Shown here piece after piece: positions 7,482 through 49,099 of a stretch of 64,000 bases of DNA; the first letter of the stretch is position 1, and every line of letters starts with the position of its first letter. Below the pieces are notes generated by a model, which was not told the DNA's origin, did not search any database, and saw nothing but the letters and a program-made list of their open reading frames with translations. The stretch lies in NCBI GenBank assembly GCA_964291265.2, contig OZ219747.1, forward strand, positions 2,080,001 to 2,144,000, read 5' to 3'. A program made the position numbers and the translations under genes. Origin of the DNA: Alphaproteobacteria bacterium (lineage in GTDB: Bacteria > Pseudomonadota > Alphaproteobacteria > SP197).

Positions 7482-9558
7482 TCGTCCCTGGTTTGACCGA
7501 AAGCGAAGTTCGGTGGCGGCATCGGCCCTGAACGCCGGTCACGGGACCGCTGCGCTGTCCGTGATCTCATCGGGTGCGTACTGCTGTCGTGGTCGCATGA
7601 CGTCGGATCTGCCGGCATGAAGCCACACCCTCCGTGCTCGTATCGTACTGATGAACCCCGCCGGCCGGGCCGAAGGGAAGCGATGGTGCCACTGTGCCCC
7701 CTTTCTTCCGGCTTATCAACATGGGGCGTGCGCCGGACAAGGCCTTCCCACGCTGGAATTCGCTTGATTTCACTTGACGTCAGGCGTTCGTATGTTGCAC
7801 GCGCGCGGACATTTCCCGCTGGCCATCCCGCTTGGGATGTGCGACGGTCCGGTCATGTCGATTCGCAAGCTCATGGAAGCTGTCCCGATCCATCAGGAAG
7901 CACCTGAGGGTTTTTCCCTGTCTGAGGTCGATGTTCGCCTGGCGAGGCCGGAGGAGCGTCCGCTGTGGGACGCGCTGATGAACAAGCACCACTATCTCGG
8001 CTTCCGTCGCCTGGCGGGTCGCGGTCTGCGCTACCTTGCGACCTTCAGGGGCCATTGGCTGGGGCTGGCGGCGTGGCAGAACGGCGCCTTCAAGTGCGCT
8101 CCCCGCGACCAGTGGACCGGCTGGAAGCCGGAGCAGCAGTTCCAGCGGCTCTCGATGGTAGCCAACAACACGCGGTTCTTGATCCTCTCCAAGCCCGGGG
8201 TGTTTGCGAACCTTGCTTCCTGTTTCCTTGCGTGCATGACGCGCCGGCTCTGTGACGATTGGCTGCAGGTGCACGGCCACGGGGTGCTGCTGGCGGAGAC
8301 GTTCTGCGATCCGGAGATCTTTGCCGGCACGATGTTGAAGGCTGCGGGCTGGACGTGTCTGGGTGAGACCAAGGGGTTTGCCCGCTCCAACGGGCGTTAC
8401 ACCGATCCTCACGGCAAGCCCAAGGATATCTACGTTACGGCACTGAGGCGCGATGCCCGGGCGCTGCTGTCGAGCCCGCTGCCGCTTCCCCCCGACGTGG
8501 CGCCGCCCTCATGCCCCGAACTGGCGCCCCGGGACCCCAAGGTGCTGCGCTCGCTCTACGCCGAGCTCGCGGCCATTCCCGACTTCCGCCGGGCGCAGGG
8601 AAGGAAGCATACCGCGGCATCGGTGCTCACCGTGCACGTGCTCGCCGAGTTCGCCAACATGAAGGGCTGTGTCGCCGCCGCGCAGTTCGCGCGGTCCCTG
8701 TCCCAGGAGGAGTTGGAGGCCATCGGCGCGTGGCTTAACCCGAAGACGGGGCTTCGCGAGCCCGTCTCCAAGTCCACCATCCACCGGGTTATCCAGTCGA
8801 TCGACCCCGAGGCTCTGGAGGATGTGCTCACCCGCTGGTCCCGGCCTCGGCTTCACCTCGCCCGTGCACTCGCCGCCGACGGCAAGCGCATCCGCGGCGC
8901 CAACCGCAACGGCGATGGCCGTCTGAGAGACCGTGGCCCTTGTCGACCATGAGACCGGCGCGCCCTTTTCCCTCCTGAACTTCAACGACGACGGCGGCGA
9001 ACTGGCGGCCATGCACGATCTCCTGGAGCGCAGCGACATCGGCGGCAAGGTGATCACACTCGACGCACTGCACACGACACGCCATACCGCAAAGCTGATC
9101 ACACAACGCGCGGATTACGTCTTCGTCGTCATGTTGATGGCTGCATAGAACGGCGGGATTTCGGCGATTTGCCGCGCTTTGTCAGGGTCGTGTTTCTTCC
9201 CTGTTGTCAGGTCCTATTGTCACGTCCTGTTGTCGTGGTTTGAGTGTTCGGCTGGTTGTCTCCCCGAGCGCCGCCGTCTTTTCCTATTGTCGTTTTGGTC
9301 CGGTTCGGGTTGTTCCGTCGGCCTCTGCTTCGGTCTTGGTGACGGTTGCCGGGAGGGTTCCGGTTCCGAGGCACTCGCGGGATTGTTTGTCTTCCCTGTG
9401 GGCGGGTCGCGTTGTCCGGTCCCGGGGCGGCGTCTTTGCCGCCGCCCCGGGTGGATGCTAGATCGGCATCAAGAGAAAGAGCGATGCGATGCCGGGCGGA
9501 GTTGTGACGCCCCCCGGCGCAGCACCCGGACGAGCCGGTCACGGGGGACCGAACTCCC

Positions 9559-10089
9559 GTGTATTGTCGAGCCATTTTGCGTCCGGGTCCACCCCCGCTC
9601 TCGAGACGGACGGTGTGCACGACAGGACGACTGTTCAACTGCAGGCGGTGTCAGCGGCAGGTTGTTCTCTGCCGGTCGTGTGACCGGGGGCATGTGTATT
9701 GCTCCAAGGAGTGCAGGGAGCGGTCCCGGATCGAGCGGCGCCGCGCGTCGCGTCGTCGCTACCAGAGCACGCTGAAGGGCCGTGAGACGGGCCGTCACCG
9801 CCAGCGGCGTTACCGGCTCCGCAAGGCGGAGGAGGCGCGTGCGTTGAAGGCCAGGGCGGCGATGGTTGCCGAGATCATGGACACGCAGACGTCTGCTGTG
9901 GTGCTGCTTGGCGACGTTCCGGCGGTGTCTGGAGACGCCGGTTCTGAAGAAATCGTTACGGACCACCCTTCCCGACTGCTGCCGACCTCCCTACCTGCGG
10001 TTGTGAAGGCGCAAGAGCGACGCGAATCGCCGCTTCGGTGCGCCAGATGCGGACGGGTCGTGACGCATGTGGTGCTGAGGGACCTGTGA
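9559..10089 (+). CDS. Hypothetical Cys-rich, basic protein (putative Zn finger) upstream of istA; start uncertain
   Basis: CRRC...CRSCDRGHVYCSKEC, an Arg-rich helix and a C-terminal CARC. Confidence 0.6.
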   Translation: MYCRAILRPGPPPLSRRTVCTTGRLFNCRRCQRQVVLCRSCDRGHVYCSKECRERSRIERRRASRRRYQSTLKGRETGRHRQRRYRLRKAEEARALKARAAMVAEIMDTQTSAVVLLGDVPAVSGDAGSEEIVTDHPSRLLPTSLPAVVKAQERRESPLRCARCGRVVTHVVLRDL

Positions 10090-10121
10090 TGCGGCGTTGA
10101 GGAACCAAAGGGAGGGAGTTC

Positions 10122-11615
10122 ATGGCGATCGACGAGGACACGCGGGCGACGATCGTGCGGCTGTCGCGGGCCGAGGGCTGGGCTGTGGGGACGATTGCCC
10201 GGCATCTCGGCGTGCACCACGGCACGGTGACGCGGGCGCTCAAGGCGTCGGGGCAGGAGCGGCGGCCGCGGGCCAAGCTCATCGACCCCTTCGTTGCCTT
10301 CCTCGGGGAGCGTCTTGAGGCGTCGCCGGACCTTCCGGCCAGCACGCTCTGGCGACAGGTCGTGGCTCTGGGCTACCGCGGCGGCGAGGATCACTTCCGT
10401 CACGACCTGCGCCGCCTCGGGCTGAGGCCGGTGAAGAGGCCCGAGCCGTCGCTGCGGCTGAGCTTCCTTCCGGGCGAGCAGGCGCAGGTTGACTGGGCCG
10501 AGTTCGGGAAGGTCCGCATCGGCCGGGCGGAGCGCAGGCTCATGGGGCTTCTCGTCACCCTCAGCTACTCGCGCCAGACTGTCCTGAGCCTGTTCCACGA
10601 CGCGCGGATGGCCAGCTTCCTGCAAGGCCATGTCGAGGCTTTCGCGGCATTCGGGGGTGTGCCGCGGAGGCTTCTGTACGACAACCTGAAGAGTGCCGTG
10701 GTGACGCGCCGCGGCAAGGCGGTCACCTATCATCCGATGCTGCTCGGCCTTGCGGCCCACTATGCCTTCGAACCGAGCGCCGCCTGGCCCAGGAGCCCGC
10801 AGGAGAAGGGCCGCGTGGAACGCCGTGTGCGCTTCGCGCGCACCGGGTTCTTCGCCGGGCGCGACATCACGGTCCCGCTCGGCGAGCTCAACGCCGCAGT
10901 TCGGGAGTGGTGCTTCGGCGCCGCCGCGGAGCGGCCCTGGCCGGACGACGACAGTCTCCTGGTGCGGGACGCCTTCGCCCGGGAGAGGGAGCACCTGATC
11001 GTCCTTCCCGTCGACCCCTTCCCGCATCACGAGGTCCGCCCGGTGCGCATCGACAAGACCTGCCACGCCCGCTTCGACACCAACGACTACAGCGTTCCGG
11101 GTAGCTTCTCCAAGGCCCTGCTGACGCTGGTCGCCGACCGCGACGAGGTCCGCATCCTCGACGGCGCCGACGAGGTCGCGCGCCACCGACGCTCCTACGA
11201 CAGGAAGCAGGCCGTCACCGATCCGGAGCATGCCAGGGCGATCGCCGCGGGCAAGCGGCGGGCCCGCTCCATGAGCGTCCGCGACCGGGTCCTGCGCACC
11301 GTGCCGCGGGCCGAGGAGATGCTGGCGCGCGCCGGGACCAACGGGCGCAACGTGGCCTCCTGCGCCCGGATGCTGGAGACGCTTCTCAACGCGCACGGCG
11401 CCGACGCTCTCGACCGGGCTGTCGCCACGGCGCTGGAGCGCGGCTCGTGCCACCCCGAAACCGTGCGCGTCATCATCGAGGAGCGCCGCCGGGAGCAGGG
11501 CCTGCCGCCCCTCAGCATCGCCGACGACGGCCGCGGCGGCCGTGGCACGACGCCGCGGGGGACCGCTCTCGACGCCTACGACAGGCCCGAAGCCAGCGCC
11601 AGGAACAAGACATGA
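10122..11615 (+). CDS. istA: IS21 transposase
   Basis: N-terminal HTH; PGEQAQVDW, LSYSR, LYDNLKSAV, PQEKGRVER. Confidence 0.95.
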   Translation: MAIDEDTRATIVRLSRAEGWAVGTIARHLGVHHGTVTRALKASGQERRPRAKLIDPFVAFLGERLEASPDLPASTLWRQVVALGYRGGEDHFRHDLRRLGLRPVKRPEPSLRLSFLPGEQAQVDWAEFGKVRIGRAERRLMGLLVTLSYSRQTVLSLFHDARMASFLQGHVEAFAAFGGVPRRLLYDNLKSAVVTRRGKAVTYHPMLLGLAAHYAFEPSAAWPRSPQEKGRVERRVRFARTGFFAGRDITVPLGELNAAVREWCFGAAAERPWPDDDSLLVRDAFAREREHLIVLPVDPFPHHEVRPVRIDKTCHARFDTNDYSVPGSFSKALLTLVADRDEVRILDGADEVARHRRSYDRKQAVTDPEHARAIAAGKRRARSMSVRDRVLRTVPRAEEMLARAGTNGRNVASCARMLETLLNAHGADALDRAVATALERGSCHPETVRVIIEERRREQGLPPLSIADDGRGGRGTTPRGTALDAYDRPEASARNKT

Positions 11616-12313
11616 GCGAGCTCAGGGAGCGTGCCCGGGCGCTCGGCCTCCACGGGCTCGTCGAACGCTGGGACGAGGTCGCCGGGACCGCATGGATCGA
11701 GGAGGTGGTCAGCGGCGAGGAACAGGCCCGCAGGGCCCGCAGCCACGAGCGCCGCCGCGCCGCGGCGCGGCTGCCCGCCTTCAAGCCCCTGGCGGACTTC
11801 GACTGGACATGGCCGCGCGACATCAGCCGGGCTCATGTCGAAGCGCTCCTCGGCCTCGGCTTCGTCGACCGTGCGGACAACGCCGTGCTCGTCGGCGGGC
11901 AGGGCACCGGAAAGACCATGATCGCCGCCAACGTGGCGCACCAGGCCCTGCTGCACGGCCACACCGTCCGCTTCGAGAAGGCGCCGGAACTGCTCGAGGC
12001 ACTCGCCGAGACCGTCTCGCGCAGCGAGCTGCGCCGCCGCCTCGCGATCCTCGCCAGGCCCCGCCTGCTCATCCTCGACGAAATCGGCTACGTGACCCTC
12101 GAAAGCCACCATGCCGACATCCTCTACGCCATCGTCTCGCGGCGCTATCAGCGCCGCTCGACCATGGTCACGACAAGCCTCGCCTTCGCCCAGTGGGACC
12201 GCGTCTTCCCCAGCGCCTCCGGCATCGCCGGCACCGTCGACCGGCTCATGCACGACGCAACCCTCATCTCCATCGACAGCGACTCCTGGCGGCTCAGGCG
12301 TGAAACCGGATAA
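11612..12313 (+). CDS. istB: IS21 helper AAA+ ATPase
   Basis: ATGA overlap with istA; GGQGTGKT, LLILDEIGY, VDRLMH. Confidence 0.93.
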   Translation: MSELRERARALGLHGLVERWDEVAGTAWIEEVVSGEEQARRARSHERRRAAARLPAFKPLADFDWTWPRDISRAHVEALLGLGFVDRADNAVLVGGQGTGKTMIAANVAHQALLHGHTVRFEKAPELLEALAETVSRSELRRRLAILARPRLLILDEIGYVTLESHHADILYAIVSRRYQRRSTMVTTSLAFAQWDRVFPSASGIAGTVDRLMHDATLISIDSDSWRLRRETG

Positions 12314-13193
12314 ACCCCGCCGCGTCGACTTCGACGCCGTCAAGCGCATGCCGTTCGAACGCATCGCCGCCGACTGGGGATACGTCCGCGACGAACAGGC
12401 CTCGACACGCGCCAACCCCGTCCTGTGCGCACCCGGCCTGCCGAAGCTCGTCACGAAGTGCCTCAACAACGGACACTGGGTCTACTTCAACACCCAGAAC
12501 GATGAAGACAACGGAACCGTCATCGACTTCATGCTCAACCGCGGACTGGCCTTCGCCGACATCTGCACCCGCTTCGCAGCACCCGACGCCGCGCCACGCG
12601 ACTTCCGCAGCCTCTGGGCCGCGGCAACGCCCGATGCGGCCCCGGACTGGCTCACCGGGCGCGGCATCCTCCCAGAGACCCTCGACACCTGCCGCCCCCT
12701 GGTCCGCCGCGACCACAACGGACGCGTCCTCTTCGCCCATCGCAACAGGAAGCGAAAGCTCACCGGCTTCGAGATCGGTCCCCCCGACGGACCGAAACGC
12801 TTCGCCACCGGTGGAACCCGAAGCCTGTTCGCCGTCCGCGCCGGAACCGCCGCGGACCTCGAGGCCCTCGTCATCACCGAAAGCGCCGTCGACGCCCTCA
12901 GCCTGGCCCAGATCGACCAATGTCCCCCCAGCCACGCCTTCCTCTCCACCGCCGGGGCACCCTCGCGAAGACAGCACGAACAGATCAGCCTCGCCGCAAG
13001 CAGCCTGCCCAACGTCAGGACCATCGTCCTCGCCCAGGACCACGACGAGGCCGGAGAGCGACAGGCCGAAACCCTGCGCAAAAAGATGAAGCTCCCCTCC
13101 CACGTCTCGTTCCACAGACGCAGACCGCCGGAAAACGCCGACTGGAACGACGTCGTCAACGCCAGGACCAAAGAACCACAAGCGAGATCATGA
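12300..13193 (+). CDS. DUF3991/Toprim (primase-like) protein
   Basis: DNGTVIDF, WLTGRGI, LVITESAVDALS, LSTAG, VLAQDHDEAG, DWND; GTG start overlaps the istB end. Confidence 0.8.
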   Translation: MKPDKPRRVDFDAVKRMPFERIAADWGYVRDEQASTRANPVLCAPGLPKLVTKCLNNGHWVYFNTQNDEDNGTVIDFMLNRGLAFADICTRFAAPDAAPRDFRSLWAAATPDAAPDWLTGRGILPETLDTCRPLVRRDHNGRVLFAHRNRKRKLTGFEIGPPDGPKRFATGGTRSLFAVRAGTAADLEALVITESAVDALSLAQIDQCPPSHAFLSTAGAPSRRQHEQISLAASSLPNVRTIVLAQDHDEAGERQAETLRKKMKLPSHVSFHRRRPPENADWNDVVNARTKEPQARS

Positions 13194-13510
13194 CCACGTC
13201 CGTCACAAGGAGACCACTCATGCCCCTCACGCCCGCCGAAAAGCAGCGGCGATACCGGGAACGGCGCAAGGCCGGCATCCCTCCCGTCCACACCCCAAAG
13301 CACCGTGACCGGCGCTCGCGACCGCAACGCTGGAACGACGCCGTGGCCGAACTGCGCTCCCTGCAGGACGAATGGCGTGACCACCTCGACAGCATCCCCG
13401 AAAGCCTCCGTGACACGCCTTACGGAGAACGCCTGCAGAGCGTCGCCGATGCCGACATCGAGGCCCTCGAGGACATCGAACCGCCACGCGGCTACGGAAG
13501 GGATACGTGA
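13190..13510 (+). CDS. Small hypothetical protein, IS21-associated type
   Basis: ATGA-coupled to the Toprim gene; LTPAEKQRRYRER...RWNDAVAEL...IEPPRGYGRD. Confidence 0.65.
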   Translation: MTTSVTRRPLMPLTPAEKQRRYRERRKAGIPPVHTPKHRDRRSRPQRWNDAVAELRSLQDEWRDHLDSIPESLRDTPYGERLQSVADADIEALEDIEPPRGYGRDT

Positions 13511-14104
13511 TCCCGCAAGACCCTTGAACGCGGTCACGCGTTACCATCCAGGAATGAGAACGTCTCACCCCGACGCGCCGCTCAGCCTCCCCGGGAAACT
13601 CCCGGGCCGTCCAAACGACACCGCATCACGAGACTGCCGCAGCCTCTGAGCCGCAGCGACGCCCGATCCGCCGCCGGGCTGGCTCACAGGTCGCAGCATC
13701 CGCCCGAAAACACTCAACGCCTGCCGCACCCTGCAGGACGAATGGCGTGACCGCCTCGACAGCATCCCCGAAAGCCTCCGTGACACGCCTTACGGAGAAC
13801 GCCTGCAGAGCGTCGCCGATGCCGACATCGAGGCCCTCGAGGACATCGAACCGCCACGCGGCTACGGAAGGGATACGTGATCCCGCAAGACCCTTGAACG
13901 CGGTCACGCGTTACCATCCAGGAATGAGAACGTCTCACCCCGACGCGCCTCTCAGCCTCCCCGGGAAACCCCCGGGCCGTCCAAACGACACCACATCACG
14001 AGACTGCCGCAGCCGCTGAGCCGCAGCAACGCCCGATCCGCCGCCGGACTGACTCACAGGTCGCAGCATCCGCCCGAAAACACTCGACGCCTGCCGCACC
14101 CTGC
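13359..14104. repeat. Tandem duplication, 2 x 370 bp
   Basis: ctgcaggacg at 13361 and 13731; ggatacgtga at 13501 and 13871. Confidence 0.93.
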
Positions 14105-14676
14105 GCCGCCGCAACCGCAACGCACGCAGCCTCTTCGCCCAGCGAACAGAAACCGTAAGCTCTCCAGCCTCGAGATCGTCCCGCCCGACGAACCACGACG
14201 AGGCCGGAGAACGCCAGAACAAGACCCCGCGCAAAAGCCTGAAGCTCCCCTCCCACATCACGTTCCACAAACGCCGACCGAAACGACATCGTCACAACGT
14301 CAACGTCAACGCAAGACCAATGGGATCCAACAATAGGCAGAAAACAAAGACCGGGCGGACCTTCGTCCAATGCCGCACGTTCTCCTGTCGTGGTCACCCA
14401 CTCACACGATCAGCGCCCAAAAGAGCGGTTCTCCGCCAATATCCCGCCGTTCTAAATCGCCGCCGACACGTCAAGGGCAACGCTCCGGAGACCTTCGCTA
14501 TCCTCGACAGCATCAATTGGCAAAAAGACGCCACCGGCCACTTCACGGAGCCGTTCGACAAGGCGCACGGTCGACTGGAGCAGCGTTCGATCAGCGTCCT
14601 CGTCCCGTTGGACGGTCTGATCAACTATCCGGGCGTCCGTCAGGTCGCCCGCATCACCCGCTATCGGGAGCCGTGG

Positions 14677-14847
14677 AAGAAAGGCTCCGGCGATGCCGGG
14701 AAGGAAGGCTCCGGCGATGCCGGGAAGGAAGGCCCCGGCGATGCCGGGAAGGAAGGCTCCGGCGATGCCGGGAAGGAAGGCTCCGGCGATGCCGGGAAGA
14801 AAGGCCCCGGCGATGCCGGGAAGAAAGGCTCCGGCGATGCCGGGAAG
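14677..14847 (+). repeat. In-frame 24-bp tandem repeat x7 (K[EK]G[SP]GDAG) inside the ISAs1 transposase
   Basis: aag(g/a)aaggc(t/c)ccggcgatgccggg repeated seven times without spacers. Confidence 0.95.
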
Positions 14848-16791
14848 CAAGAAGAGAAGGATTACACGGAAACCGATTACATCATCACCTCTCTCGATAC
14901 GGGGGCCACGTCGCCGGAAGAGTTGCTGCGACTGAACCGCCGCCACTGGGCCGTGGAAAATCTGAACCATCGACAAAGGGATTGCGTCTTCGGCGAAGAC
15001 GCCTGCCTGACCCGCACCGACAACGGCCCGGCGAACCGGGCCAGCCTCAACAACATCGCGCTCGCGGTGATCTTCGCCAACCGCCGCGAGGCCGAAAGCC
15101 TCGCCGAAACCCGGCGCCGCCTACAACTGGACCGTCGCGAGGCCATCAACGCCCTGACCCGGCCCTGAGACGCCTTGAGCGTCCGGGGACCCCGGAACGC
15201 TGCTAGACCGAAGTTCCGGACGTTTTCCAGCTGGAAGTCGCGTCAAGTCGTTGATCTTGCGCGGTTTATCGGGTTTGACGGACTTCACAACGTACCCATG
15301 TACGGATGCATTTTGTGCTTGACACACGGCAGTGCCGTGCCTATGTACAGTAGCCATGTACATCGAAGCCGTCCCCAACCGCTCCTCGCCGCCCGCCATC
15401 CTGCTCCGCGAGTCCTATCGCGAAAACGGAAAGGTCAAGAAGCGCACCATCGCCAACCTCTCCAAGTAGTCCCCCACCCTCGTCGAGGGATTGCGCATCC
15501 TCCTCAAGGGAGGAACAGCAGTCCGACATCTCGACGATGCCTTCGACATCGTCCGCTCCCTTCCCCACGGGCATGTCGCCGCAGTGCTGGGAACCCTGAA
15601 GAAGCTGGGACTGGACAGGCTGATCGACCCGAAGCCCTCGGCACGGCGCGATCAGGTCCTGGCCATGATCGTGGCACGCATCCTCGAGCCCGCCTCGAAG
15701 CTGGCCACGGCCAGGGGGCTGGCCGAGGCCACGGCGGTCAGCACCCTGGGCGAGGTCCTCGATGCGGAGATGGACGAGGACGCCCTCTATGGCGCCATGG
15801 ACTGGCTCCTGGAGCGTCAGGAGAGGATCGAGCGGTCCCTGGCGAAGCGGCGCCTCGAAGAGGGCTGCCTGGTGCTCTATGACCTGACCTCGGTATGGAT
15901 GGAGGGGAGAGCGTGTCCCCTGGCAAGGAGGGGTCATTCCCGGGATGGCAAGAAGGGCAAGCTGCAGATCGAGTTCGGCCTTCTGTGCGATCGGGACGGC
16001 TGTCCAGTGTCGGTGGAAGTGTTCCCCGGCAACACGGCGGACCCCGGGACGGTGGCATCACAGATCACCACGCTGCAGGAGCGCTTCTCCCTGGCGAAGG
16101 TGGTGCTGGTGGGAGACCGGGGGATGCTGACCGAGGCGCGCATACGCGAGGAGGTGAAGCCTGCGGGCCTGGACTGGATCAGCGCCTTGAGGGGACCGGC
16201 CATCCGCGCCCTTGTGGAGGCCGGCGACGTCGAGATGTCGCTCTTCGACGAGAGGGACCTGGTGGAGATCACCAGCGATGCGTATCCCGGCGAACGCCTC
16301 ATGGTCTGCCGCAACCCCCTGCTGGCCGAGGACCGGGCCCGCAAGCGCCAGGAGCTGCTCGAGGCCACCGAGGCCCTGCTTGAACCGATCGCCGCAGCGA
16401 CACGGCGCGACAAGCGCCGTCTCAAGGGTGCCGACAAGATCGGGGAGCGGGTCGGCAAGGTCATCGGTAAATACAAGATGGCGAGTAACTACTCACCCCC
16501 TACTGATGACGGATCGTTTTTCCTGACGGGTTCGGATCCGGCATTGTCTCTTGCCGCCTTCACTTGCTCGCTTCCGATGATCGGATGTGCGTGTTCCGAC
16601 TGACAAGAAGCGGATCGATCTTCGTCTTCAGCTCCACGTTCCGGCCTTATATGGCCAGGTTTTGTCCCCGTGATGATGCAATCATCCACAGCGGTTGGCT
16701 GCCTTTCCAATCCTCTGGAGATATGCGCTTGACATTGTAGGAGGGGCACTCTACATGCAGGCCATCGGGGCGGTTTGCGTCGGAGATATTG

Positions 16792-17466
16792 ATGGCGGCA
16801 TGGTATGGATCGAAGGCGACGACGGGTCTGAGCCAGGCGATCGTCGCGGCCATGCCGCCGCATGACGTGTACATCGAGGCGTTCCTTGGGGGCGGCGCGA
16901 TCATGAAGCGCAAGCCACCGGCGCTACGCAGCATCGGCATTGACCTCAACCGCCGGGCGATCGACACCTTCCGCTGTGACTATCCGGTGGAGCTTCACCA
17001 AGGCTGCGCCCTGCGTTTTCTCGAGACCTTCGCCTTCCAGGGCCGCGAGCTGGTCTACTGCGACCCGCCTTACGTGCAGTCGACGCGCCGGTCGCAGCGC
17101 CGCTACCGCTTCGACTGCACGGACGATGACCATGTTGCGCTCCTCGACATCCTGACGTCGCTGCCCTGCCAGGTGATGATCTCCGGCTATCCCTCGCGGC
17201 TCTACGACACGCACCTCGCCGGCTGGCGCTCGGCCGAGGTCCAGGTCAACAACCAGGCCTGCGTTGTCACCGAGAAGCTGTGGTTCAACTTCGCACCGGG
17301 CCGACCGCACTGGCATACGTGTGCGGGCAGGAACTCGATCGACCGCCAGCGCATCAAGCGCCTCGCAGAGAGCTGGGCGCGGCGCTACCGGACGATGCCC
17401 GAAGGCGAGCGGCTCGCCGTGCTGGCGGCAGTCATGGCGGTGGAGGCGTCGTCATGGCGAGCGTGA
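16792..17466 (+). CDS. Compact Dam-like (D12/alpha-class) DNA adenine methyltransferase
   Basis: YGSK, YIEAFLGGGA (SAM binding), VYCDPPY, VMISGY, TEKLWFNF. Confidence 0.85.
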   Translation: MAAWYGSKATTGLSQAIVAAMPPHDVYIEAFLGGGAIMKRKPPALRSIGIDLNRRAIDTFRCDYPVELHQGCALRFLETFAFQGRELVYCDPPYVQSTRRSQRRYRFDCTDDDHVALLDILTSLPCQVMISGYPSRLYDTHLAGWRSAEVQVNNQACVVTEKLWFNFAPGRPHWHTCAGRNSIDRQRIKRLAESWARRYRTMPEGERLAVLAAVMAVEASSWRA

Positions 17467-18147
17467 ACGGCACGTCTGTGCGCCAGGAGGCCGACATCTT
17501 CCAGAAGCAGTTCCAGGATCTCCGCAAGCAGGGCAAGGTCAACCAGGAGTGCGAGGAGCTCTTCCGCGGCATGCTGATGCTGATAAAGCTGTTGCTGACC
17601 GTGCTCATGGAGAAGATCACACGTAAGACAAGCCGGAACTCCGGTCTGCCGCCATCGCAGACTGACAAGGACGAGAGCGCGAGGCGCACCGGGAGCCACG
17701 GCAAGGGCCCGAAGCCGAACCAGCAGACGGGCGACAACCTGCGCACGACCACCGTCGAGGAGACGATCGTCGTTGATGCCTGCGACGCCTGCGGCGCCGA
17801 CCTCCACGACGTTGACCCCGTCGACCGGGAGTGCCGCGTCCTCTACGACATCGTGTTCGAAGTCGTCGAGCGCCGCGTCGAAGCCGAGATCAAGGAATGT
17901 CCGAAGTGCCGGGCCCGGACCAAGGGCCGGTTCCCAGACAACATGCCGGGCCCCCTGCAGTACGGCGTCAGCATCCAGGCCCTCGTCATCAACCTGCTGA
18001 TCGCCCAGATGCTGTCCCTGCGTCGTGCCGTCTCGCTGTAAGCGTTCGGCCGTTCGGTGATGGCTGATTTTGGTTGGTTTGGGTCTTGCTGACTATCGTC
18101 TGAGAAAGTGCTGGTAAACTCGTTTGGTCTCGATTATGGTCGAGGCC

Positions 18148-20580
18148 ATGAAGACTTTTGCCGAGACGCGCGGAGCGACACAGCAGCTGACGGGAGGTGG
18201 TGACGGCCTATGTCGGGCGTCAGTGGCCTTGTCATGCGAGGCGCCTGACTGGCGTGCGCTCTATGAGGCGGAGCGGGTTCGTGCGGATGCGGCGGAAGCG
18301 CGTATGCGGTGTGCCAGGCGAACTGGCGGAAGGTAGGGGGTGAAAGTCCCCTGGAACGAAGGAGTAACCAAACCACGTTTCTCCGCGAGCCGTGCGTCGG
18401 TTCCCGCGAGGGGGCAGGCGAAGCGTCGGTAGCGGTACGGATGGGCAGGGCTAATGAGCACCGAAAAAGCTATCATCCGGGGTGCCGAGGCTTTCGCATT
18501 GGTCGAAGGCAACATCGCAGGCATCGATTTGGTGAGATGTCGGCGAGCCCCGCGGTGTCAGAGAACCCATGCACGTCCGCACGCCTTCTGTTGGGACCCT
18601 GGGAGATCTTCAAACCGTCCCGCCGGTTGTGGCGGGACCGCATGGGGAAGGAGAAAACCGAAGCCTATGATGTACGGTTTGAAGAAGTCGGATGAGGCCG
18701 TAGTACCTGTGAAGGCGGCGAACAAGGAAGCGTTAGCTTCTGCGGAGTCGCTGGAGGAAAGGGCCTCAACCAAGGGGAATCCGGGACGCTAAAGCACGCA
18801 CCGAACGCAGTGTCGGGCAAGCGTGCCACAGGCGGCGGATCGGATACGGGAAGCCGCAGGCTAGTCCAGTGGTTTGCCGTCCAGTACCCGAGGTAGGAGC
18901 CGGATGGATTAACGTCCACGTCCGGATCTGCGCGGGGGGTGCGCAGCAATGCGCATCCCTACCGCGTCTGACCTGCGCCGTGCGAAGAATTCTGCCCGTG
19001 CCCGTGCGGGCACATTCAAGTTTCATCTCGACCGCACTCGTGATCAGCTCAAGGAGGCTCGCCGGGAGGTGAAGCGTGGACAGGCCCGAGCGGAGGCGCT
19101 GGAGCAGGAAAGGGACGCTCTGAAGCTCAAGAACGCTGAACAGGCGAGCGAGCTGAGGAATCTCCGCGGGACGCGTGCCAAGCACGCGACGGCGCGCTTC
19201 GGGTCGAAGAGCGAGAAACGGAAGAAGAAGGAAGGCACCGGGAACAAGCGGGGTCAGCAACCCGGCAAGAGCGGCCACGGGCGCACTCCGCGTCCGAAGC
19301 TCAAGGAGAAGCACGAACGCCATGATCCACCGGCATCGCAGCGCACGTGCCCGTGTTGCGGCGAGCCCTATGTGGCCAACGGCAGCCACGAGACCTCGAT
19401 CATGGAGGTCCATGTCAAGGCTCATATCCGGCGGATTGAACGTGGGCGTTGGCGCCGTGGTTGTCAGTGTTCGTCGGCGCCTGCGGAGATCATCGCGCCG
19501 CCACCTTTGCGCTTGCTTGCGAATACCCCCTTCGGCATCAGTGTCTGGGAATGCGTGCTCTATGAGCGCTTCGCCTGCTTGCGTCCCCTGCGCCGGGTCT
19601 CGCGATGGCTGGAAGACCAGGGACTGCCGATGGCGCCGGGAACGATCGCTGGCGGCATGAAGAAGATGACGCCGATGTTCGCGCCTCTCGCTCAGGCCAT
19701 CCTCGATCATCAGAACCGGCTGACGGTGCGCCACGGCGACGAGACCAGCTGGCGCATCCAGTCCCTCAAGGCCTCGGGGCGCTCGCAGAAGGCCTGGCTG
19801 TGGACCGCGGTCAGCGCCGACTCCGTCTTCTTCCTTATCGACCCGTCACGCAGCACCCGGGTGGCCATGGTGCTGTTCGCCTCCACCGAAGGTGTCGTCT
19901 TCCTTGTTTGCGACCGCTACGTGGTCTACAGGAAACTGGAGCGTGAGCTTGATGGCAAGGTGATCCTCTGCCTTTGCTGGGCGCACTCCAGGCGCGATGT
20001 GATCGAGGCTGCGGCAGGCCAAGAGGGGCTGGAAGAGTGGTGCGACAAGTGGCTCGACAGGATCGCGCTGATCTACACACTGAATGGGCAACGGCTGAAG
20101 CACTACGATCCCGCACGCAAGCGTCAGTCAGCGAGGTTCAATGCCCTGCAGAAGGACCTTCGTGCGGCTGTCGAGGCGCTGTTCAGGCAGGCTCAGGAGG
20201 AACTCGACGCCTTGCCCGAGGGTGCACGCGAAGCGAAGCCCTTGCGTTCCCTGATCCGTCACCGCGAGGGACTGTGCGTCTTTGTCGACCATCCCCAGGT
20301 GCCCATGGACAACAACTTTGCCGAGAGAGCCCTCCGGGGTGCGGTGACCGCGAGAAAGCTGAGCTTCGGCTCCGACAGCGAGGAAGGCGCCGCCTTCACC
20401 GCCATCATGTACTCGGTCATCGGCACCCTTGCCATGAACAACATCAATGTTCGGCGCTGGCTTCATGAGTGGCTTGAGGCCTGCGCGCAGAACGGCGGCA
20501 AGCCGCCGGATGACCTCGACCCGTGGCTGCCATGGTCGATGCCCCCGGAGCGTCGAAGGGACCTCATGGAACCGGGGTGA
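18148..20580 (+). CDS. IS66 transposase B, interrupted by a sense-strand group II intron; start approximate
   Basis: Removing 18309-18968 gives in-frame AEARMR-DLRRAK; FGSKSEK, CPCCG, HGDETSW, VCDRY, CWAHSRR, MDNNFAERALR. Confidence 0.85.
18309..18968 (+). ncRNA. ORF-less (internally deleted) group II intron
   Basis: Starts GTGTG; similar to 49100-49349 and 62627-62940; only the first RT codons remain; domain V/VI-like end ggagccggatggattaacgtccacgtccggatctgcgcggggg...ccctaccgcgtc. Confidence 0.88.
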
Positions 20581-20884
20581 TCGAGTGCCGTTACGACGGC
20601 CGTGACTTCACCGCGCACGAGATGGCGCTGTTGCGCTCCCTGATCACCCAGCACCCCACCCGTGCGGCCATCGCCCGCGCCTTCTGCCGCGAGACCGGCT
20701 GATACAAGCCCGACGGGGCCTCAAGAACATGATGGCGAATGTCGCCTTTCTGGCCATGCACCGCGACGGCCTCATCACCCTGCCGCCACCCCAACGACGA
20801 GCAACCCGACCCGGACCCATCGTCTTCGGACCCAACAGCGAACCGCCACGTGGTGCGCCTCCCAAACGCATCCTCAACCGGTGA
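20577..20884 (+). pseudogene. DUF4338 gene remnant in IS66 B
   Basis: Matches the 5' and extreme 3' ends of 47405..48271, with a stop at ~20700 and a large deletion at ~20864. Confidence 0.85.
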
Positions 20885-22933
20885 ATATCACCAACAATCA
20901 CCGCGTGGCCGAACGCTTACGTCTCGCTCGTGCACGCGATCTCCGGCATCAAGCTCTCCGAGGCGACCTGCCTCGGCTATGTCCGGCGCTTTCACGATGC
21001 CCTCGCATCATGGGAGGAGGCCGCCGTGGCCCATCTCCTGCAACAACCGGCCCTGCATGTCGACGAGACCGGCTTCCGGGTCGCCGGCAAGACCCAATGG
21101 CTCCATGTCGTCACCGACGGCACCCTGACGTGCAAGTTCCCGCACCCCAAGCGCGGCCGGGAGGCGATCGAAGAGATCGGCATCATCCCGCGCTACAAGG
21201 GCGTCCTGATCCACGACTGCTGGGCTGCCTACATGGGCTACGATCAATGCCGCCACCAACTGTGCGGCAGCCATCTCCTGCGCGAACTGACCTTCGTCGT
21301 CGAGTCCAACGGCTACCGCTGGGCGCGACTGATGAAAAGCCTGCTGCGCGAGGTCTCCCGCAGGGTCAACAAGAGCGCATCCAAGACCTTGAACGAGGCC
21401 GACCGCCGGGCCGTGCGCAAGCGCTACCGCACCATCCTCACCCAGGGCGCCAAGGAACTGCCCGACATCCCGCCACGGACGAAAGGAAAACGTGGACGCA
21501 TCGCAAAGTCCGACGCGCACAACCTGCATGAACGTCTCGTGAAACACGAGAAGTCCGTCCTGCGCTTCATGAAGGACCCCAACGTCAGTTTCACCAACAA
21601 TACCGGAGAGCAGAAGATCAGGATGACAAAGGTCAAGATCAAGGTGTCCGGATGTTTCCGCACCATGCCCCACGCCAAAGCATGGTGCCGAGGCTCAAGC
21701 TACCTCACCACCATGGACGCACTCGGCTACAACCCTCACGTCGCCATCCACATCGCCCTCGACGGAAAGGCCGTAGACATCCTCAACCAACACTACGGAC
21801 AACCAGACCCTAACAAGGGGTGAGTAGTTACGATGGCGAAGCACTTCACGTGGTCCATCGACGACGAGGGTGTCTTCACCTATGGGCGCGATGAGGTTGC
21901 CATCGCCGCCGAGGCCAGGCTCGACGGCCTCTACGTGATCCGCACCAGCCTGCCGCAGAGCGAGCTCGACGGTCCCGGCACGGTGCGCGCCTACAAGCGG
22001 CTGAGTTCGGTGGAACGGGCCTTCCGCAGCCTGAAGACCGTGGATCTGAAGGTCCGCCCCGTCTACCACCGCACCGAACCCCGGGTCCGCGCCCATGTCT
22101 TCCTGTGCATGCTCGCCTACTACGTTGAATGGCACATGCGCCAGAGACTGAAGCCCATGCTGTTCGACGACGAGGATGCCGAAGGCGCCGAGGCCCGGCG
22201 GCCGTCCGTCGTGGCGCCGGCAGAAGTCTCGGCGAGCGCCCGGGCCAAGGCGGCAACGAAGAGGACGCCCGGGGGTGATCCGGTGCACAGTTTCCGCACC
22301 CTCCTCGATGATCTCGCGACCATCACCCGCAACACCGTGGCGCCCCGCCTTGCGGGCGCCAAACCCTTCCAGGTCACCACGCGGCCCACGCCGCTCCAGA
22401 GAAGGGCGCTCAAGCTTCTGGGCGTGGAGCCGTAGTGTACTCAGTCAGATGCTTCTGAGATCCATCGAATGTCATTCATATCAGGTACTTGCACTTGATC
22501 GGCGCTGGAACTTCGGGCTAGAACATCAAGAACCAAGCATCCGGGCCGAAAACGCTGCCGGTGTCGCCATGCGGACGGCACTGAAGCCACGGAATCCGTC
22601 CAGGACATCCCGATTCGGCCTCGATTCGTCGGCCTCGCGAAAGATCAGATGGCCGATTCGGGCGCGATTCATCGGCTTCCCGAAAAATCAGCCGTAGCGT
22701 AGGAAAGTCCTGTGCGCCGGATCAGCCTTCCAGCGCTCAGTGGAATGAACCCTTCATGGGGACTTACCCCGGTCCCCTACCGCGACAAGCCCCTGCGAAA
22801 CATGACAGAGACGAGGGAGGTCACATCTGCCCGGCATCCGCTCCCTTCCTTCTCCGGGAGCTGTCGCGGCATTGCGCAAGGGGTCCGGACCGGATATCTG
22901 ATCGCGCAGCCACCCGTATCGGAGCAGCCCACC

Positions 22934-30552: not shown

Positions 30553-30706
30553 GATCAGCATCACCTCCTCACTGCGCGAGATGGATGACCCGATCCACGT
30601 GCCGCACGGTGTCTTGCACGGGTCGATTCCTTGACGACCTCCCCGGCCTCGGTGCATTCAGTTGGCATCGTACGAGTGCCGGTGTGAAGGACGATCGACT
30701 GACCGC

Positions 30707-40900: not shown

Positions 40901-41348
40901 CAGGGCCATGGACAGAGGCCTGCCCGCAGTCGCGGTTGCCCTGGCACGACTTGGCATTCCAGGCCTGAACTCGAATAGAGACGCGGGATTGGTCGAGCGG
41001 TATGCGACGGAAACCACCGCCCTGGCCGACGCAGTGGGCGAACGCGCCAGGGTTCATGCCGATGGCCTTCCAGGTGACTTCGGTCCGCACGTCCGGGATC
41101 GTGTGCAGAGCCTGTTCGACGATTGGGCGAAGCTTGCCGACACGGTTCAACAGGGCGGTGTGTCCCTGCACTACACAGCGGAACGCGGCAAGGGAGATGC
41201 GACACGCCTCTTGCGTGAGATGATCGATCCCGACCGCGGCGTGATCAGCGAAGACCGTTTCCGGTTCCGTTCACCACGCTCCCTGCGCGACGTGGAGCCA
41301 GGAGTGCTTCTCGGGGTCAAGTCACCGGACGGCAAAGACATCAAGTAG
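37974..41348 (+). CDS. drmA: DISARM SF2 helicase
   Basis: FFPTGGGKTEAY, MRYTLRLLT, IQDELHLISGPLG, ATNMISVGLDI, YIQATSRVGR. Confidence 0.93.
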   Translation: MIQSPAPSVTDSAAVRDYIIDALCLDLVGPGPDDARYHQERLSRAPSLWYLTGFLVPTDAPESQRAQDAEEELDEPTDPVEGSDDATTPERGTTKRVHFPSSMGLSVLVEEDCQSLDVTVSWGDYHPDKTDAVGAEGDGDDAAGRRYRYAGWTRVPREESLRVDLASLRNGEQASHDIPGSGGLQVVCLARTTQVRDASGQRAARALSVFVVNRRHPAGDDDLQDTAYAFQVALCVEADQPFIPRFDPRGLESRDWDERLADLHFHDTAEFAVGHNVSVRAEVTGDVCRQVHSEWMPRAAVERVEPRDITDVELSMESLDSLQDVKSARKSLMPLITAYRDWIDEQNQATQAFTGRRREVADELVSRAKGVAHRLEGGVDCLNDPDVLEAFRMANRAMARAARRREAQKPGVSSPSAAPPPQWRPFQLAYILMNLRGIAEPTHLEREFVDLLFFPTGGGKTEAYLGLAAFTLVLRRLRDPDPVHRGLSVLMRYTLRLLTLDQLGRAAALICALELERESNPGRLGSWPFEIALWVGRAATPNHMGKKGDPSKRTAIWKIRDYKKDSAREPPLPLEQCPWCATRFDKSSYHLHPDTNRPTNLHVYCASRSCDFSSRPLPIVAVDEPIYERLPAFMIATADKFAAMPWTGETARFFRGGDADNPRPPDLIIQDELHLISGPLGTMAGLYETAIDHLCQRRIGDKVVRPKIIASTATVRLAEKQIRALFGRSTVSVFPAPGLDRRDSFFAKQASREEVNPRLYLGIAAPGRGSKVIFLRCAITVMAAAQAAWDAASTSGRANPADPYMTVVAYFNALRELGSARRIVEDEINSRLRTYGKLRMRPDETPGLFANRTAALEPVELTSRVTTSEVADAKRRLALDFSNNERVDVALATNMISVGLDITRLGLMLVSGQPKTTAEYIQATSRVGRDADSPGLVITLLNVHKPRDRSHYEHFSAWHESFYRSVEATSVTPFSPRAMDRGLPAVAVALARLGIPGLNSNRDAGLVERYATETTALADAVGERARVHADGLPGDFGPHVRDRVQSLFDDWAKLADTVQQGGVSLHYTAERGKGDATRLLREMIDPDRGVISEDRFRFRSPRSLRDVEPGVLLGVKSPDGKDIK

Positions 41349-41353
41349 ACATC

Positions 41354-43156: not shown

Positions 43157-43953
43157 ACACCGGGGATTTCAAGGGCCTCTCCCCCCTTGCAAAGGACGAC
43201 CTCCAGAGGCTCGCTGAACTCCTCGATGCCGGCCTTCTCGTTCCACCAATCAGTGCTCTTGCACTTCATGCCCACGTTCCCATGTCCGCCGCCGAGCCTG
43301 TGGCGCTGTTTCTGTCGCACTACCTTGATGAGGGTATGGCCCCGGGCGACGTCGCGCGACTCCTCCGGGCCTTCATGGCGGGGCTACAGGCAGGAAATTC
43401 CACATCACGGTCCGTCGACGTGGTGGTCAGTGGCCCGGGCGACACCGAAGGAGCACGCGACACCGGTGTTGTTGTCAGGCAGCTGTTCGCAAGGGCCACA
43501 CAACGCATCCTCGTAGCCGGCTTTGCGGTCCACCAGGGCAAGACACTGTTTAGAGTCCTTGCCGACCGTCTCGACGCGGACCCGTCACTCGACGCAATTC
43601 TCTGCCTTGACATCAGTCGGGGCCCCGGTGATACGTCACTCGCAAGGGACATTGTCCGCCGGTTTGCAATCCGTTTCCGAGATCATGAGTGGCCCGGCCA
43701 GCGCCTTCCCGACATCTGCTACGATCCTCGCTCTCTTGAAAGGGCCGGGAGGTCCGCAAGCTCCATGCACGCAAAATGTGTGGTCATCGACGGTCGTGAA
43801 GCCCTGGTCACGTCAGCAAACTTCACCGAGGCTGCACAGCAACGAAACATCGAGCTTGGCCTGCTCGTTAACTCAGAACTTGTCGCGCAGCGCATCGAGG
43901 ACTATTTTCGCAAGTTGATCAAGAGCCGTACTCTGATACGACTGCCTGTATAG
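43153..43953 (+). CDS. drmC: DISARM phospholipase-D-family nuclease
   Basis: HKD motif MHAKCVVID, TSANFT, RNIELG. Confidence 0.92.
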   Translation: MNTGDFKGLSPLAKDDLQRLAELLDAGLLVPPISALALHAHVPMSAAEPVALFLSHYLDEGMAPGDVARLLRAFMAGLQAGNSTSRSVDVVVSGPGDTEGARDTGVVVRQLFARATQRILVAGFAVHQGKTLFRVLADRLDADPSLDAILCLDISRGPGDTSLARDIVRRFAIRFRDHEWPGQRLPDICYDPRSLERAGRSASSMHAKCVVIDGREALVTSANFTEAAQQRNIELGLLVNSELVAQRIEDYFRKLIKSRTLIRLPV

Positions 43954-45372: not shown

Positions 45373-45523
45373 TATTGTTCTCCATGTTGTACGCGTCGAT
45401 TCGCAGCAGCGAAAAACGGGCACAATGATCCCTGGGCCGAAGCTAACCGATTTCCGGTGTTGATTTCAAGGGGAGCTGTGCCATGGCAATTCAAAAAGCC
45501 AGGCGCACCTCGCTCAGCTGCAT

Positions 45524-46524: not shown

Positions 46525-46760
46525 ACCATCGATGTTACAGTCGCATCTTCACGAAGTGCATCTCGCACCAGTGCAATCGATGTTACGTCAACATCCTGAC
46601 GCCAAGATCTATCGACTACGCCTGCATTCTCCGTAGTCTTCCCGATTGTCGGCGCATCGGTTCCAGTGGGTACAGATCTCGCAACGCCCGGTCGAGGTGC
46701 CATGGGCCTTTCAAGCGGACACGGTTAACTCTGTGTTCATGAGGCCGCATATTGTGTCCC

Positions 46761-47166
46761 ATGAGGATTGGCTTTCGACATCTGTCTGCGACGACGGTTG
46801 ATTGGCTGAAGGCGGCGTCGGTTGCCGAGGGCAGCACGCGCTCGTCCCTGGGGCGGGGATTGTGCGAGCGCGAGAATTGGCGCAACGCGAAGGGCGCCTT
46901 GTGCCTTGCCTCGGCGCGTGCGGCCCTGCCTGGTCTTGCCTCGTCGCTCGACATCGTCCTTCCTGCACCAAGGCCTCATGCCCTCGACACCGGCATCCTC
47001 GAGCGGGACTATCCCGACACGTCACTGGCCTGTGCTCTGGGGGACCTTGGTGAGGTCACCCTTGGAGCCGGTCGGCGACGGCGAGGACAAGCGCCTGGCC
47101 CGTTCGATGATGGCGACCTGGCATCCCGAGGGCGAGGCGCGCGCACCCGGCGCCCGGGTGAGTTAG
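46761..47166 (+). pseudogene. N-terminal fragment of a probable DUF4338-containing (IS4-like) transposase, frameshifted and interrupted
   Basis: TRSSLGRGLCERENWRNAKG...ASAR and MMATWHPEG parallel TRAAIARAFCRETGW and FVARYHYLG in 47405..48271. Confidence 0.55.
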
Positions 47167-47352
47167 TGCCCGCCCGAGAAAGTGCAACCATCTGACTCCA
47201 ATACCTGAATCGTGTATAGGGGAGACGAAGAATCCCGCTTTGGGGCGGGAATCGTCCGGTTTGGTTTCGAATCAGCCGGATTTTCGGGAAACTTCGCGAG
47301 AATAGCCATGCGAGACGTCGTCCGCCCTCAGCTGGAATTGGGACAGGTTGTG
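47167..47352 (+). mobile_element. Left end and first 15 codons of a probable ISNCY/IS5-like element
   Basis: Abrupt break in the previous ORF; ATG at 47308 gives MRDVVRPQLELGQVV, resembling ISNCY transposase N-termini. Confidence 0.4.
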
Positions 47353-47368
47353 GTGCGCCAGGCGAACT
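47353..47368 (+). ncRNA. First 16 nt of a group II intron, cut by IS66
   Basis: gtgcgccaggcgaact matches the intron starts at 18309 and 49100 at 15 of 16 positions. Confidence 0.7.
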
Positions 47369-49099
47369 GTAAGCGTTCGGTCGCGCGGTGATTGTTGGTG
47401 ATATTCACCGGTTGAGGATGCGTTTCCAGTCCTTGCGGAGAGGCCTCAGCCAGATGTCCTTTTTTGGTTTGTCGAGTTTCCTGTGCGTATCGTAGCGTCC
47501 GCGTCCTTTGGTGGTGCCGACATGGATCCATCCTGACGCCTTGTAGACGGTGCCTGTGTAGCGCGGTGTCTGGACGAAGGTTTCGATGAGGACCGGTGTG
47601 GTGTTGTAGCGTCTGGTCCAGTCATCGGACAGTCGGCGTCGCATGATGGCGAGGATGTGGGACCCAAGGTTGGCGATGGAAATCCAGGACATGATCAAGA
47701 AGCGTGGATTATCGACCACCAGCGGCAGGTTCTTCTGCCGCTGCTCGGGTGTCCATCCGATGAAGGTGTCGCGCGGGGCGATTTTCCAGGCGGCGGTGGA
47801 GAAGCCGAGCATGGCGACGGGCGCTCCGTTGCGATCATGGAAGGCGTAGCGCATCTGGGCTCCGACCAGTCTCGTGTAGCCGAGATAATGGTAGCGGGCG
47901 ACGAACTCGTTCCACAGCTTTCCTTCCCGGGTGCCGCATGTGACGATGGAGACGGCAAGGGGGCGGACCTCGTCGAGGGTTGTGGGAGGCGCGCCGCGTG
48001 GCGGTTCGCTGTCGGGTCCGAAGACGATGGGCTTGGGCCGGACCGGCGGGTGTTTGGGTGGCGGCAGGGTGATGAGGCCGTCGCGGTGCATGGCCAGGAA
48101 GGTGACACTCGCCATCATGTTCTTGAGGCCGCCGTCGGGCTTGTACCAGCCGGTCTCGCGGCAGAAGGCACGGGCGATGGCCGCACGGGTGGGGTGCTGG
48201 GTGATCAGGGAGCGCAACAGCGCCATCTCGTGCGCGGTGAAGTCACGGCCGTAGTAACGGCACTCGATCACCCCGGTTCCGTGAGGTCCCGTCGGCGCTC
48301 CGGGCTCATCGACCATGGCAGCCACGGGTCGAGGTCGTCCGGCGGCTTGCCGCCGTTCTGCGCACAGGCATCAAGCCACTCATGAAGCCAGCGCCGAACA
48401 TTGATGTTGTTCATGGCAAGGGTGCCGATGACCGAGTACATGATGGCGGTGAAGGCGGCGCCCTCCTCGCTGTCGGAGCCGAAGTTCAGCTTTCTCGCGG
48501 TCACCGCACCCCGGAGGGTTCTCTCGGCCAGGTTGTTGTCCATGGGCACCTGGGGATGATCGACGAAGACACACAGTCCCTCGCGGTGACGGATCAGGGA
48601 GCGCAAGGGCTTCGCTTCGCGTGCACCCTCGGGCAAGGCGTCGAGTTCCTCCTGTGCCTGCCTGAACAGCGCCTCGACAGCGACACGAAGGGCATCCTGC
48701 AGGGCATCGAACATCGCTGACTGATGCTCCCGTGCGTGCGGGATCGTAGTGCTTCAGCCGTTGCCCATTCAGTGTGTAGATCAGCGCGATCCTGTCGAGC
48801 CACCTGTCGCACCACTCTTCCAGCCCCTCCTGGCCTGCCGCAGCCTCGATCACATCGCGCCTGGAGTGCGTCCAGCAAAAGCAGAGGATCACCTTGCCAT
48901 CGAGCTCGCGCTCAAGTTTCTTGTAGACCGCGTAGCGGTCGCAGACAAGGAAGACGGTGCCTTCGGTGGAGGCGAACAGCACCATGGCCACCCGGGCGTT
49001 GCGTGACGGGTCGATGAGGAAGAAGACGGAGTCGGCGCTGACCGAGTTCCACAGCCAGGCCTTCTGCGAGCGCCCCGAGGCCTTGAGGGACTGGATGCG
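47369..49099 (-). mobile_element. IS66 B, second copy (right end and 3' part); interrupted by a group II intron at 49100
   Basis: IR gtaagcgttcgg at 47369; 48268-49099 closely matches the reverse complement of 19753-20580, with a frameshift near 48730. Confidence 0.92.
47405..48271 (-). CDS. DUF4338 protein (intact), passenger of IS66 B
   Basis: GTGA-coupled to the transposase stop; YHYLGY, RDTFIGW, NPRFLI, NLGSHIL, IETFVQ, GTVYKASGWIHVGTTKGRGR. Confidence 0.88.
   Translation of the reverse strand: MIECRYYGRDFTAHEMALLRSLITQHPTRAAIARAFCRETGWYKPDGGLKNMMASVTFLAMHRDGLITLPPPKHPPVRPKPIVFGPDSEPPRGAPPTTLDEVRPLAVSIVTCGTREGKLWNEFVARYHYLGYTRLVGAQMRYAFHDRNGAPVAMLGFSTAAWKIAPRDTFIGWTPEQRQKNLPLVVDNPRFLIMSWISIANLGSHILAIMRRRLSDDWTRRYNTTPVLIETFVQTPRYTGTVYKASGWIHVGTTKGRGRYDTHRKLDKPKKDIWLRPLRKDWKRILNR

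Follow-up and report, generated by a model that had tools for sequence, protein, structure and literature searches.

Why does a domain that Pfam names after a Druantia defence gene occur four times within 64 kb of bacterial DNA, each time inside an insertion sequence (IS)? The stretch in question, hereafter the window, comprises 64,000 nucleotides from Alphaproteobacteria bacterium (assembly GCA_964291265.2, contig OZ219747.1, positions 2,080,001 to 2,144,000). A first-pass annotation had proposed that its DUF4338 sequences always stand in an IS context and resemble Mom, the DNA-modifying GNAT enzyme of phage Mu. The analysis reported here bears out both points, all four sequences being real and IS-borne in three IS families (IS66, ISAs1 and IS50-type), with Mu Mom as the closest match of the predicted fold. 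The domain likely works like Mom, as judged from the model.

The domain copies of the window

Comparison of the window proteins with Pfam PF14236 (DruA/DUF4338; gathering cut-off 27 bits) gives 128.8 bits (E 3e-37) for the 288-residue open reading frame (ORF) at 47405-48271 and 72.3 bits (E 5e-20) for the ORF at 7774-8952, whereas the remnant at 20577 was detected by tblastn and the 46.8-kb fragment by a hidden Markov model (HMM) built from this genome. Coordinates are collected in Table 1.

The intact gene encodes a protein with an N-terminal helical module (about residues 1-65) and a GNAT core (about 98-284) in the model. Its GTG start overlaps the TGA stop of the preceding transposase gene (GTGA), as expected from the coupling described in the first-pass annotation, although the partner is TnpC (PF03050) and not the 'B' transposase named there. 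The right inverted repeat of the IS66 ends 35 nt beyond the stop of the gene. In this locus the passenger gene is whole and the IS66 element itself is broken, because its tnpC is frameshifted and cut by a group II intron remnant. Also, a group II intron, represented by the first 16 bases of its 5' end, adjoins this IS66 copy at 47353-47369, which suggests that the IS inserted into an intron copy.

The second IS66 copy is complete and carries the domain in decayed form, as had been claimed, the ~555-bp deletion taking out the catalytic core. Its tnpC, split by an intron remnant, starts 98 bp inside the left end, and an uninterrupted copy elsewhere in the genome encodes 594 residues. The element has the TnpC DDE transposase, the GTAA-type inverted repeats and the 8-bp target duplication of the IS66 family. 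The canonical IS66 form has three genes, including tnpA and tnpB; neither is present in this element, in keeping with a single-transposase form within the family.

The fusion to an ISAs1 transposase is also real, but the reading frame is lost before the DDE core through a +1 frameshift near 8920, as in 8 of the 12 genome copies that span the site. An in-frame copy elsewhere scores 145 bits with the ISAs1 model NF033564 (cut-off 70), the window copy being the frameshifted one. A 24-bp tandem repeat of variable copy number lies at 14651-14875 in the ISAs1 transposase coding region, and the element copies differ in length there. Finally, the N-terminal fragment noticed at 46761 is the 5' end of an IS50-type element, the third family, with 87% identity to bases 1-458 of an element with a transposase fused to the Mom-like domain; NF033590 and the Tn5 DNA-binding and dimer domains are found in full-length genome copies of this type, the window holding the 5' end only.

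Resemblance to Mu Mom and relation to DruA

A fold model was built with AlphaFold2 from an alignment of 106 sequences, the single-sequence model being unusable (predicted local distance difference test, pLDDT, 34.7), and reaches a pLDDT of 95.6 and a predicted template modelling score of 0.87. Mu Mom (PDB code: 8BV8) is ranked first both by Foldseek (E 6e-6) and by VIA (Z 14.3, root mean square deviation 3.8 over 170 residues), the next GNAT having a Z of 13.2. Moreover, the profile of the family matches that of six phage Mom proteins (Mu Mom and five homologs) with a probability of 97% and E 1.6e-10, and the PHROG Mom-like profile with E 2e-4. Single-sequence hhalign comparisons with Mom are weak (E 0.006 and 0.049), so that the profile-versus-profile comparison alone is significant, and sequence searches of the PDB gave nothing significant.

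The profile alignment places H128, Y129, R190, S204, Q234 and Y243 opposite H58, Y59, R111, S124, D149 and Y159 of Mom. According to the available part of PMC13219725, Mom moves glycine from Gly-tRNA to the N6 of adenine in an SAS context and thereby shields DNA from restriction; R111, S124 and R151 are essential, a helix-turn-helix (HTH) insert is required, and changes of Y59, D149 or Y159 strongly reduce activity. The same paper gives 308 u for the nucleoside 6-NcmdA. R190 is invariant among the 106 aligned relatives, and H128 and S204 are each found in 105 of them; of the 56 cores of this genome, 55-56 retain H, R and S. The IS66 protein matches Mom at R111, S124, H58, Y59 and Y159, while Y59 and Y159 vary in the other IS types. 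The D149 position holds E or D in 84 of the 106 relatives, and the candidate for R151, R237, is offset by one residue, R151 itself varying among the six phage Moms.

However, Mom proper and the IS domain differ. Identity is 14-15%, the HTH-like insert of Mom (175-209) is replaced by a short loop, and the domain is encoded by IS, not by phages. The score with the Pfam Mom family PF25680 is 13.3 bits, below the cut-off of 27.1, and a PF25680 search across the genome gave no match. Without the HTH insert the domain is therefore called Mom-like and not a member of Mom proper; that it likely works like Mom, as the fold and residues of the model suggest, is maintained despite the missing insert and the low Pfam score. 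The IS66, IS4 and IS50 forms (E 3e-19 to 1e-8) have an extra N-terminal helical module in common that neither ISAs1 form possesses, and its comparison with the Atlas gave no named family (best 0.91, 'mobile element protein'). The complex predicted for TnpC (95-543) and the 288-residue protein scores 0.00, which is evidence neither way.

The family name raises the alternative that these are mobilised druA defence genes of Druantia, or chance cargo. For comparison, three DruA proteins were taken from plasmid-borne operons whose last gene encodes a large helicase. True DruA and the IS-borne domain are homologous (probability 96%, E 4e-9) and have an RD-x-IGW segment in common; nevertheless, the PADLOC DruA model reaches only E 3e-5 with the IS-borne domain, DruA lies on a long separate branch of a quick tree of cores, and all three DruA proteins have S-W, Y and G at the H-Y, R and S positions of Mom. 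As regards the active site, the IS-borne branch therefore resembles Mom more closely than DruA does. A DruA profile of 4 rows did not match the Mom profile of 6 rows (E 0.12), both being thin. Unlike the IS66 protein, type I DruA has about 410 residues and heads an operon ending in an 1,850-residue helicase; here, the neighbours are transposases in place of a druA-E operon with the DruE helicase. The PADLOC models of DruB1 and DruC1 found no match in the genome, with a DruB control that was also silent everywhere and DruD and DruE models not searched. With all 77 related loci described below linked to IS66, the druA or cargo alternative is highly improbable and largely refuted, in agreement with the first-pass annotation.

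Two observations concern DruA itself. A 397-residue DruA-like gene in another genome (G319:C1:2600223-2604245) lies, by eye, directly downstream of a TniQ-like ORF, and so possibly belongs to a Tn7-like element and not to a Druantia operon. Also, in the part of Ojima et al. 2024 (bioRxiv 10.1101/2024.04.14.589459) that was available, a PacBio 'm6A' signal at CAGCTGNC is attributed to Druantia type I, which has no methylase, and the responsible gene is left unidentified. Because the motif fits the SAS/SASNY context of Mom, the GNAT-like DruA may by analogy be a candidate writer of a mark that may not be methyl; the absence of the H, Y, R and S of Mom from DruA counts against this.

Conservation between genomes and loss within one

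In the whole genome (two contigs with 4.83 Mb in total; completeness 100 and contamination 2.62), the genome-built HMM gives 126 matches, including 56 near-full cores in 10 clusters that are 28-53% identical to one another, leaving aside one decayed offshoot of an IS50 type. One representative of each of the other nine clusters was scanned: the IS66 representative is the separate gene behind tnpC, and the other eight are N-terminal fusions, five to IS50-type transposases, one to another IS4-type transposase and two to ISAs1. These eight fusion types occur in several copies that have common ends and often target duplications, and by ORF length full-length fusions hold 32 of the 52 fused cores. 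A same-strand transposase match lies within 400 bp of 79 of the 104 merged loci. Random placement, repeated 200 times, gave a mean of 4.0 and at most 9, so that the association with transposases, enclosed as the domain is by IS ends, is not due to chance; the predicted enrichment is thus present. Overlap with one of the nine element references is found at 98 of the 104 loci, a partly circular count as the references contain the domain. The elements are inserted into each other freely.

Outside this genome, the best 77 distinct loci among 595 matches (74-83% identity, one clade, 23 genomes) were compared. TnpC lies directly upstream of the Mom-like gene in all 77, and an ATGA or GTGA start-stop overlap is present in 72 of 76 and absent in 4, one locus with an internal stop having been dropped. 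In a simple search, paired 25-bp repeats with an exact 8-bp duplication enclose both genes in 12 of the 77 loci. Among 43 distinct genes, the ratio of nonsynonymous to synonymous substitution rates (dN/dS) has a pairwise median of 0.17 in the core (896 of 903 pairs) and of 0.27 in the N-terminal part, each value covering about 895 of the 903 pairs, which are not independent: the Mom-like gene is under purifying selection across genomes. The value of 0.44 for TnpC is probably inflated by frameshifted copies, and no claim is made that the domain is better conserved than TnpC.

Among 93 longer relatives, 83 carry a transposition Pfam domain: 55 have PF03050, 21 IS4/Tn5 domains, 3 DDE_5 and 4 other transposition families, with 10 having none of these. 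IS66 TnpC fusions of 802-812 residues make up 25 of the 93 and represent a natural fused form, although some irregular singletons may be assembly joins; a fusion to an IS630 transposase was found too. A homolog search for longer proteins in the range of 1363-3890 residues, an uninformative one, gave no match. In a quick tree of 66 cores, sequences group by IS family (11 label changes against 44 when shuffled); 26 of its 63 branches are open, and no donor or order of events is claimed from it. PF14236 is matched in 11 of 151 genomes sampled from the phylum, and the family has 7,547 representatives at E<=0.001. No phage match was found for the Mom-like gene.

However, within this genome the IS66 copies have repeatedly lost the gene. 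It is intact at 2 of 32 tnpC 3' ends, has lost the catalytic core at 26, and is interrupted or diverged at 4. The core deletions fall into a class ending near nt 847 (19 copies) and an independent class, nt 190-704 (7 copies), the breakpoints having been checked by alignment in 15 of the 32 ends and the others assigned by end length. Yet the spread of these copies continued: 15 right ends are identical save one base, which points to recent spread, and the core deletion is present in each of the 10 copies that have matching 8-bp duplications as well as in the only two whose 600-codon tnpC frame is uninterrupted. Since all target-duplicated copies are deleted, the gene is dispensable in cis for transposition; the enzyme could be supplied in trans from other copies. 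Conservation between genomes together with loss within one fits a benefit at host entry, but would also agree with a brake or a cost to the host.

Group II introns lie at recurring sites in IS66 tnpC, and 13 genome matches span the 5' intron junction. Several copies with the 660-bp intron remnant have perfect target duplications, so that either the intron was spliced out or the element moved in trans. Many other IS66 copies break at a site matching window position 19753.

As for the surroundings, the ISAs1 element at the left of the window encloses within its single target site a 15-kb nested stack of IS21 (with a Toprim gene), an IS1634-type element, two IS66 elements (the Mom-linked one and another) and a group II intron remnant. 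On one side of this stack lies sat (22.9 kb, ATP sulfurylase), and on the other are divergent genes at 4341-7481, which by eye resemble aprMBA. The first-pass annotation had also credited the genome with DISARM and restriction-modification (R-M). The former is present as a complete class I system, whereas for the latter an orphan methyltransferase was found and no restriction enzyme was identified. Tandem integrase pairs flank the DISARM genes, a TrwC relaxase and NikA-like genes accompany them (28256-30552, 51184-56982 and 60243-62506), and the region is an integrative mobilisable island; a 144-bp repeat in about five copies lies within the relaxase gene (52373-53236). No link of the Mom-like domain to the local DISARM is shown, the domain being spread over about 100 loci genome-wide, and a tie between the two was rejected, proximity being its sole evidence.

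Table 1. Positions of the features discussed. Plain numbers refer to the window, and those prefixed with L126 to L128 to plasmid loci.
Feature	Position	Strand	Evidence or remarks
Intact Mom-like GNAT gene (DUF4338/PF14236), 288 aa	47405..48271	-	Pfam match and predicted fold
IS66 tnpC 3' part, frameshifted, truncated at 49099	48268..49099	-	PF03050 DDE
IS66 right inverted repeat, 47-kb copy	47369..47397	-	Repeat comparison
Group II intron remnant truncating the 47-kb tnpC	49100..49355	+	RF02005 at 49134-49355
Complete IS66 copy	18038..20920	+	Inverted repeats 18038-18066 and 20892-20920 (29 bp); 8-bp target duplication GTCTCGCT
IS66 tnpC	18136..20580	+	Split at 18309-18968 by 660-bp group II intron remnant
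Mom-like gene remnant	20577..20885	+	Stop at codon 42, 1-bp deletion, ~555-bp deletion
Mom-like core without N-terminal helical module, fused to N-terminal part of ISAs1 transposase	7774..8952	+	DruA and DDE_Tnp_1_assoc / ISAs1
Whole ISAs1 element, in pieces 7738-9131, 14469-15207 and 22517-22712	7738..22712	+	9-bp target duplication TGCGCCGGA
IS50-type (IS4 family) 5' end: left end, N-terminal module, first part of Mom-like core	46707..47162	+	
Class I DISARM, complete	30662-43953		
Orphan methyltransferase	57119-58105		
DruA genes of plasmid operons	L126:13866-15095, L127:13767-15008, L128:12031-13263		

Possible roles of the Mom-like domain

The role tentatively proposed here is that of a transposon-borne tRNA-dependent DNA adenine acylase, made in step with the transposase and protecting the DNA of the element from restriction at transfer. 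The IS would carry a Mom-type GNAT domain of predicted fold, fused to the transposase gene or translationally overlapping it, and this domain would move an amino acid from a charged tRNA, its presumed donor, onto adenine in DNA, its presumed substrate. It would act on DNA near the element while transposase is being made, and element DNA modified in this way would be shielded from restriction enzymes on entering a new host. The benefit would thus arise at horizontal transfer and not in hops within a genome, which would account for conservation between genomes together with decay within one. The proposal builds on the predicted equivalence of fold and residues to Mom.

Several observations weigh against it, beginning with the absent HTH insert and the continued spread of core-less IS66 copies. 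In the fold ranking, the lead of Mom is only 1.1 Z, the runner-up being a protein N-acetyltransferase, and the available part of PMC13219725 states that the substrate is not predictable from structure. An alternative is an active GNAT with a non-DNA substrate; it might act as a mild toxin or a transposition cofactor, for instance, by acylating aminoacyl-tRNA, the transposase or a host protein. Here, protein acetyltransferases come close behind Mom, the DNA-binding insert of Mom is missing, and repeated deletion would fit toxicity. Moreover, the available part of PMC10853773 describes DUF4338 as a GNAT and treats a DndF-fused DUF4338 as possibly targeting proteins. Nonetheless, the conserved H-Y, R and S are features of Mom, R111 being conserved in Mom homologs and not across GNATs according to the accessible part of PMC7261163, and an antitoxin gene was not found inside the elements. 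A non-DNA substrate is unlikely on this balance.

Also counting against the proposed acylase are substitutions at the active site. The window IS66 protein has Q at the D149 position (Q in 8 of the 43 members of its clade, E in 35), the window ISAs1 domain lacks the equivalent of Y159, and the equivalents of Y59, D149 and Y159 are missing from five, three and three, respectively, of the five IS50-type families of this genome. As such changes strongly cut the activity of Mom, at least in the IS50-type fusions the domain might have little or no catalytic activity and serve as an accessory module that binds nucleic acids and descends from a Mom-like enzyme, and the N-terminal helical module added in the IS66, IS4 and IS50 forms would agree with that. 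However, the near-invariance of H, R and S, in this genome and among the 106 relatives, is typical of an active site, and a binding module is rather unlikely.

The targets of the presumed acylase present a further difficulty. SAS sites are not enriched in 18 IS ends (3.8 against 4.2 per 28 positions), and IS are short with few restriction sites, so that protection must reach carrier DNA to matter. Dam methylation regulates the transposition of IS10 and IS50, and the Mom-like domain might likewise modify DNA to regulate transposition, marking ends, promoter or target site and so limiting re-insertion or timing activity. The tight fusion or overlap with transposases of several families, and the 26 deleted against 2 intact IS66 copies, would be expected of such a brake. 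On the other hand, SAS is not enriched in the ends (the motif may differ), purifying selection acts on the gene across genomes although a brake would soon be lost, and the free mutual insertion of the elements leaves no evident target immunity. Regulation is somewhat unlikely.

The proposal of an adenine acylase carried by transposons has a precursor. Iyer, Tahiliani, Rao and Aravind reportedly linked Mom-like proteins to diverse bacterial transposase families and proposed DNA modification by transposons in 2009 (Cell Cycle 8:1698), the same idea as that of the first-pass annotation. The association of IS with Mom-like proteins is thus probably already in print as a prediction. The available part of PMC7824862 cites that paper for momylation systems in phage and bacterial genomes. 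What is added here is the residue-level match to the Mom active site of 2026, the nine IS types in one genome and the repeated loss from IS66. Studies of IS-borne DUF4338 or Mom-like genes were not found in the literature searched, with subscription papers mostly outside it, and the available parts of PMC4738411, PMC12730594, the 2023 Mom preprint, the Phold and YprA preprints and a 2026 Druantia preprint do not discuss an IS-borne Mom. The transporter IS (tIS) of the IS66 family described in a TnCentral preprint are also IS66 with a passenger gene inside the inverted repeats, but here the passenger is one conserved gene that overlaps tnpC; another clade has it fused to TnpC, and fusions to IS4, IS50, ISAs1, IS630 and DDE_5 transposases occur too.

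The IS-borne domain is a real and well-supported member of a predicted kind, with a function that is likewise predicted. A wider claim is possible and held more loosely than the proposed role: the smallest bacterial mobile elements would carry their own tRNA-dependent DNA hypermodifying enzyme, repeatedly captured by or swapped among IS66, IS4, IS50, ISAs1 and IS630. Its production would be tied to that of the transposase, and the mark set on DNA around the element would serve as an anti-restriction passport in horizontal spread. For annotation, the 'DruA' labels of Pfam and RefSeq on IS-borne genes are misleading and can inflate counts of defence systems. The 2026 Mom assays make the question of function testable, and this large family could offer new tRNA-dependent DNA-labelling enzymes. 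If the wider claim is true, a modified base would have gone unrecognised in genomes such as this one, with its >30 full-length fusions; and if the domain is active, IS would mark bacterial DNA chemically, something so far demonstrated for phages and for the R-M systems of hosts.

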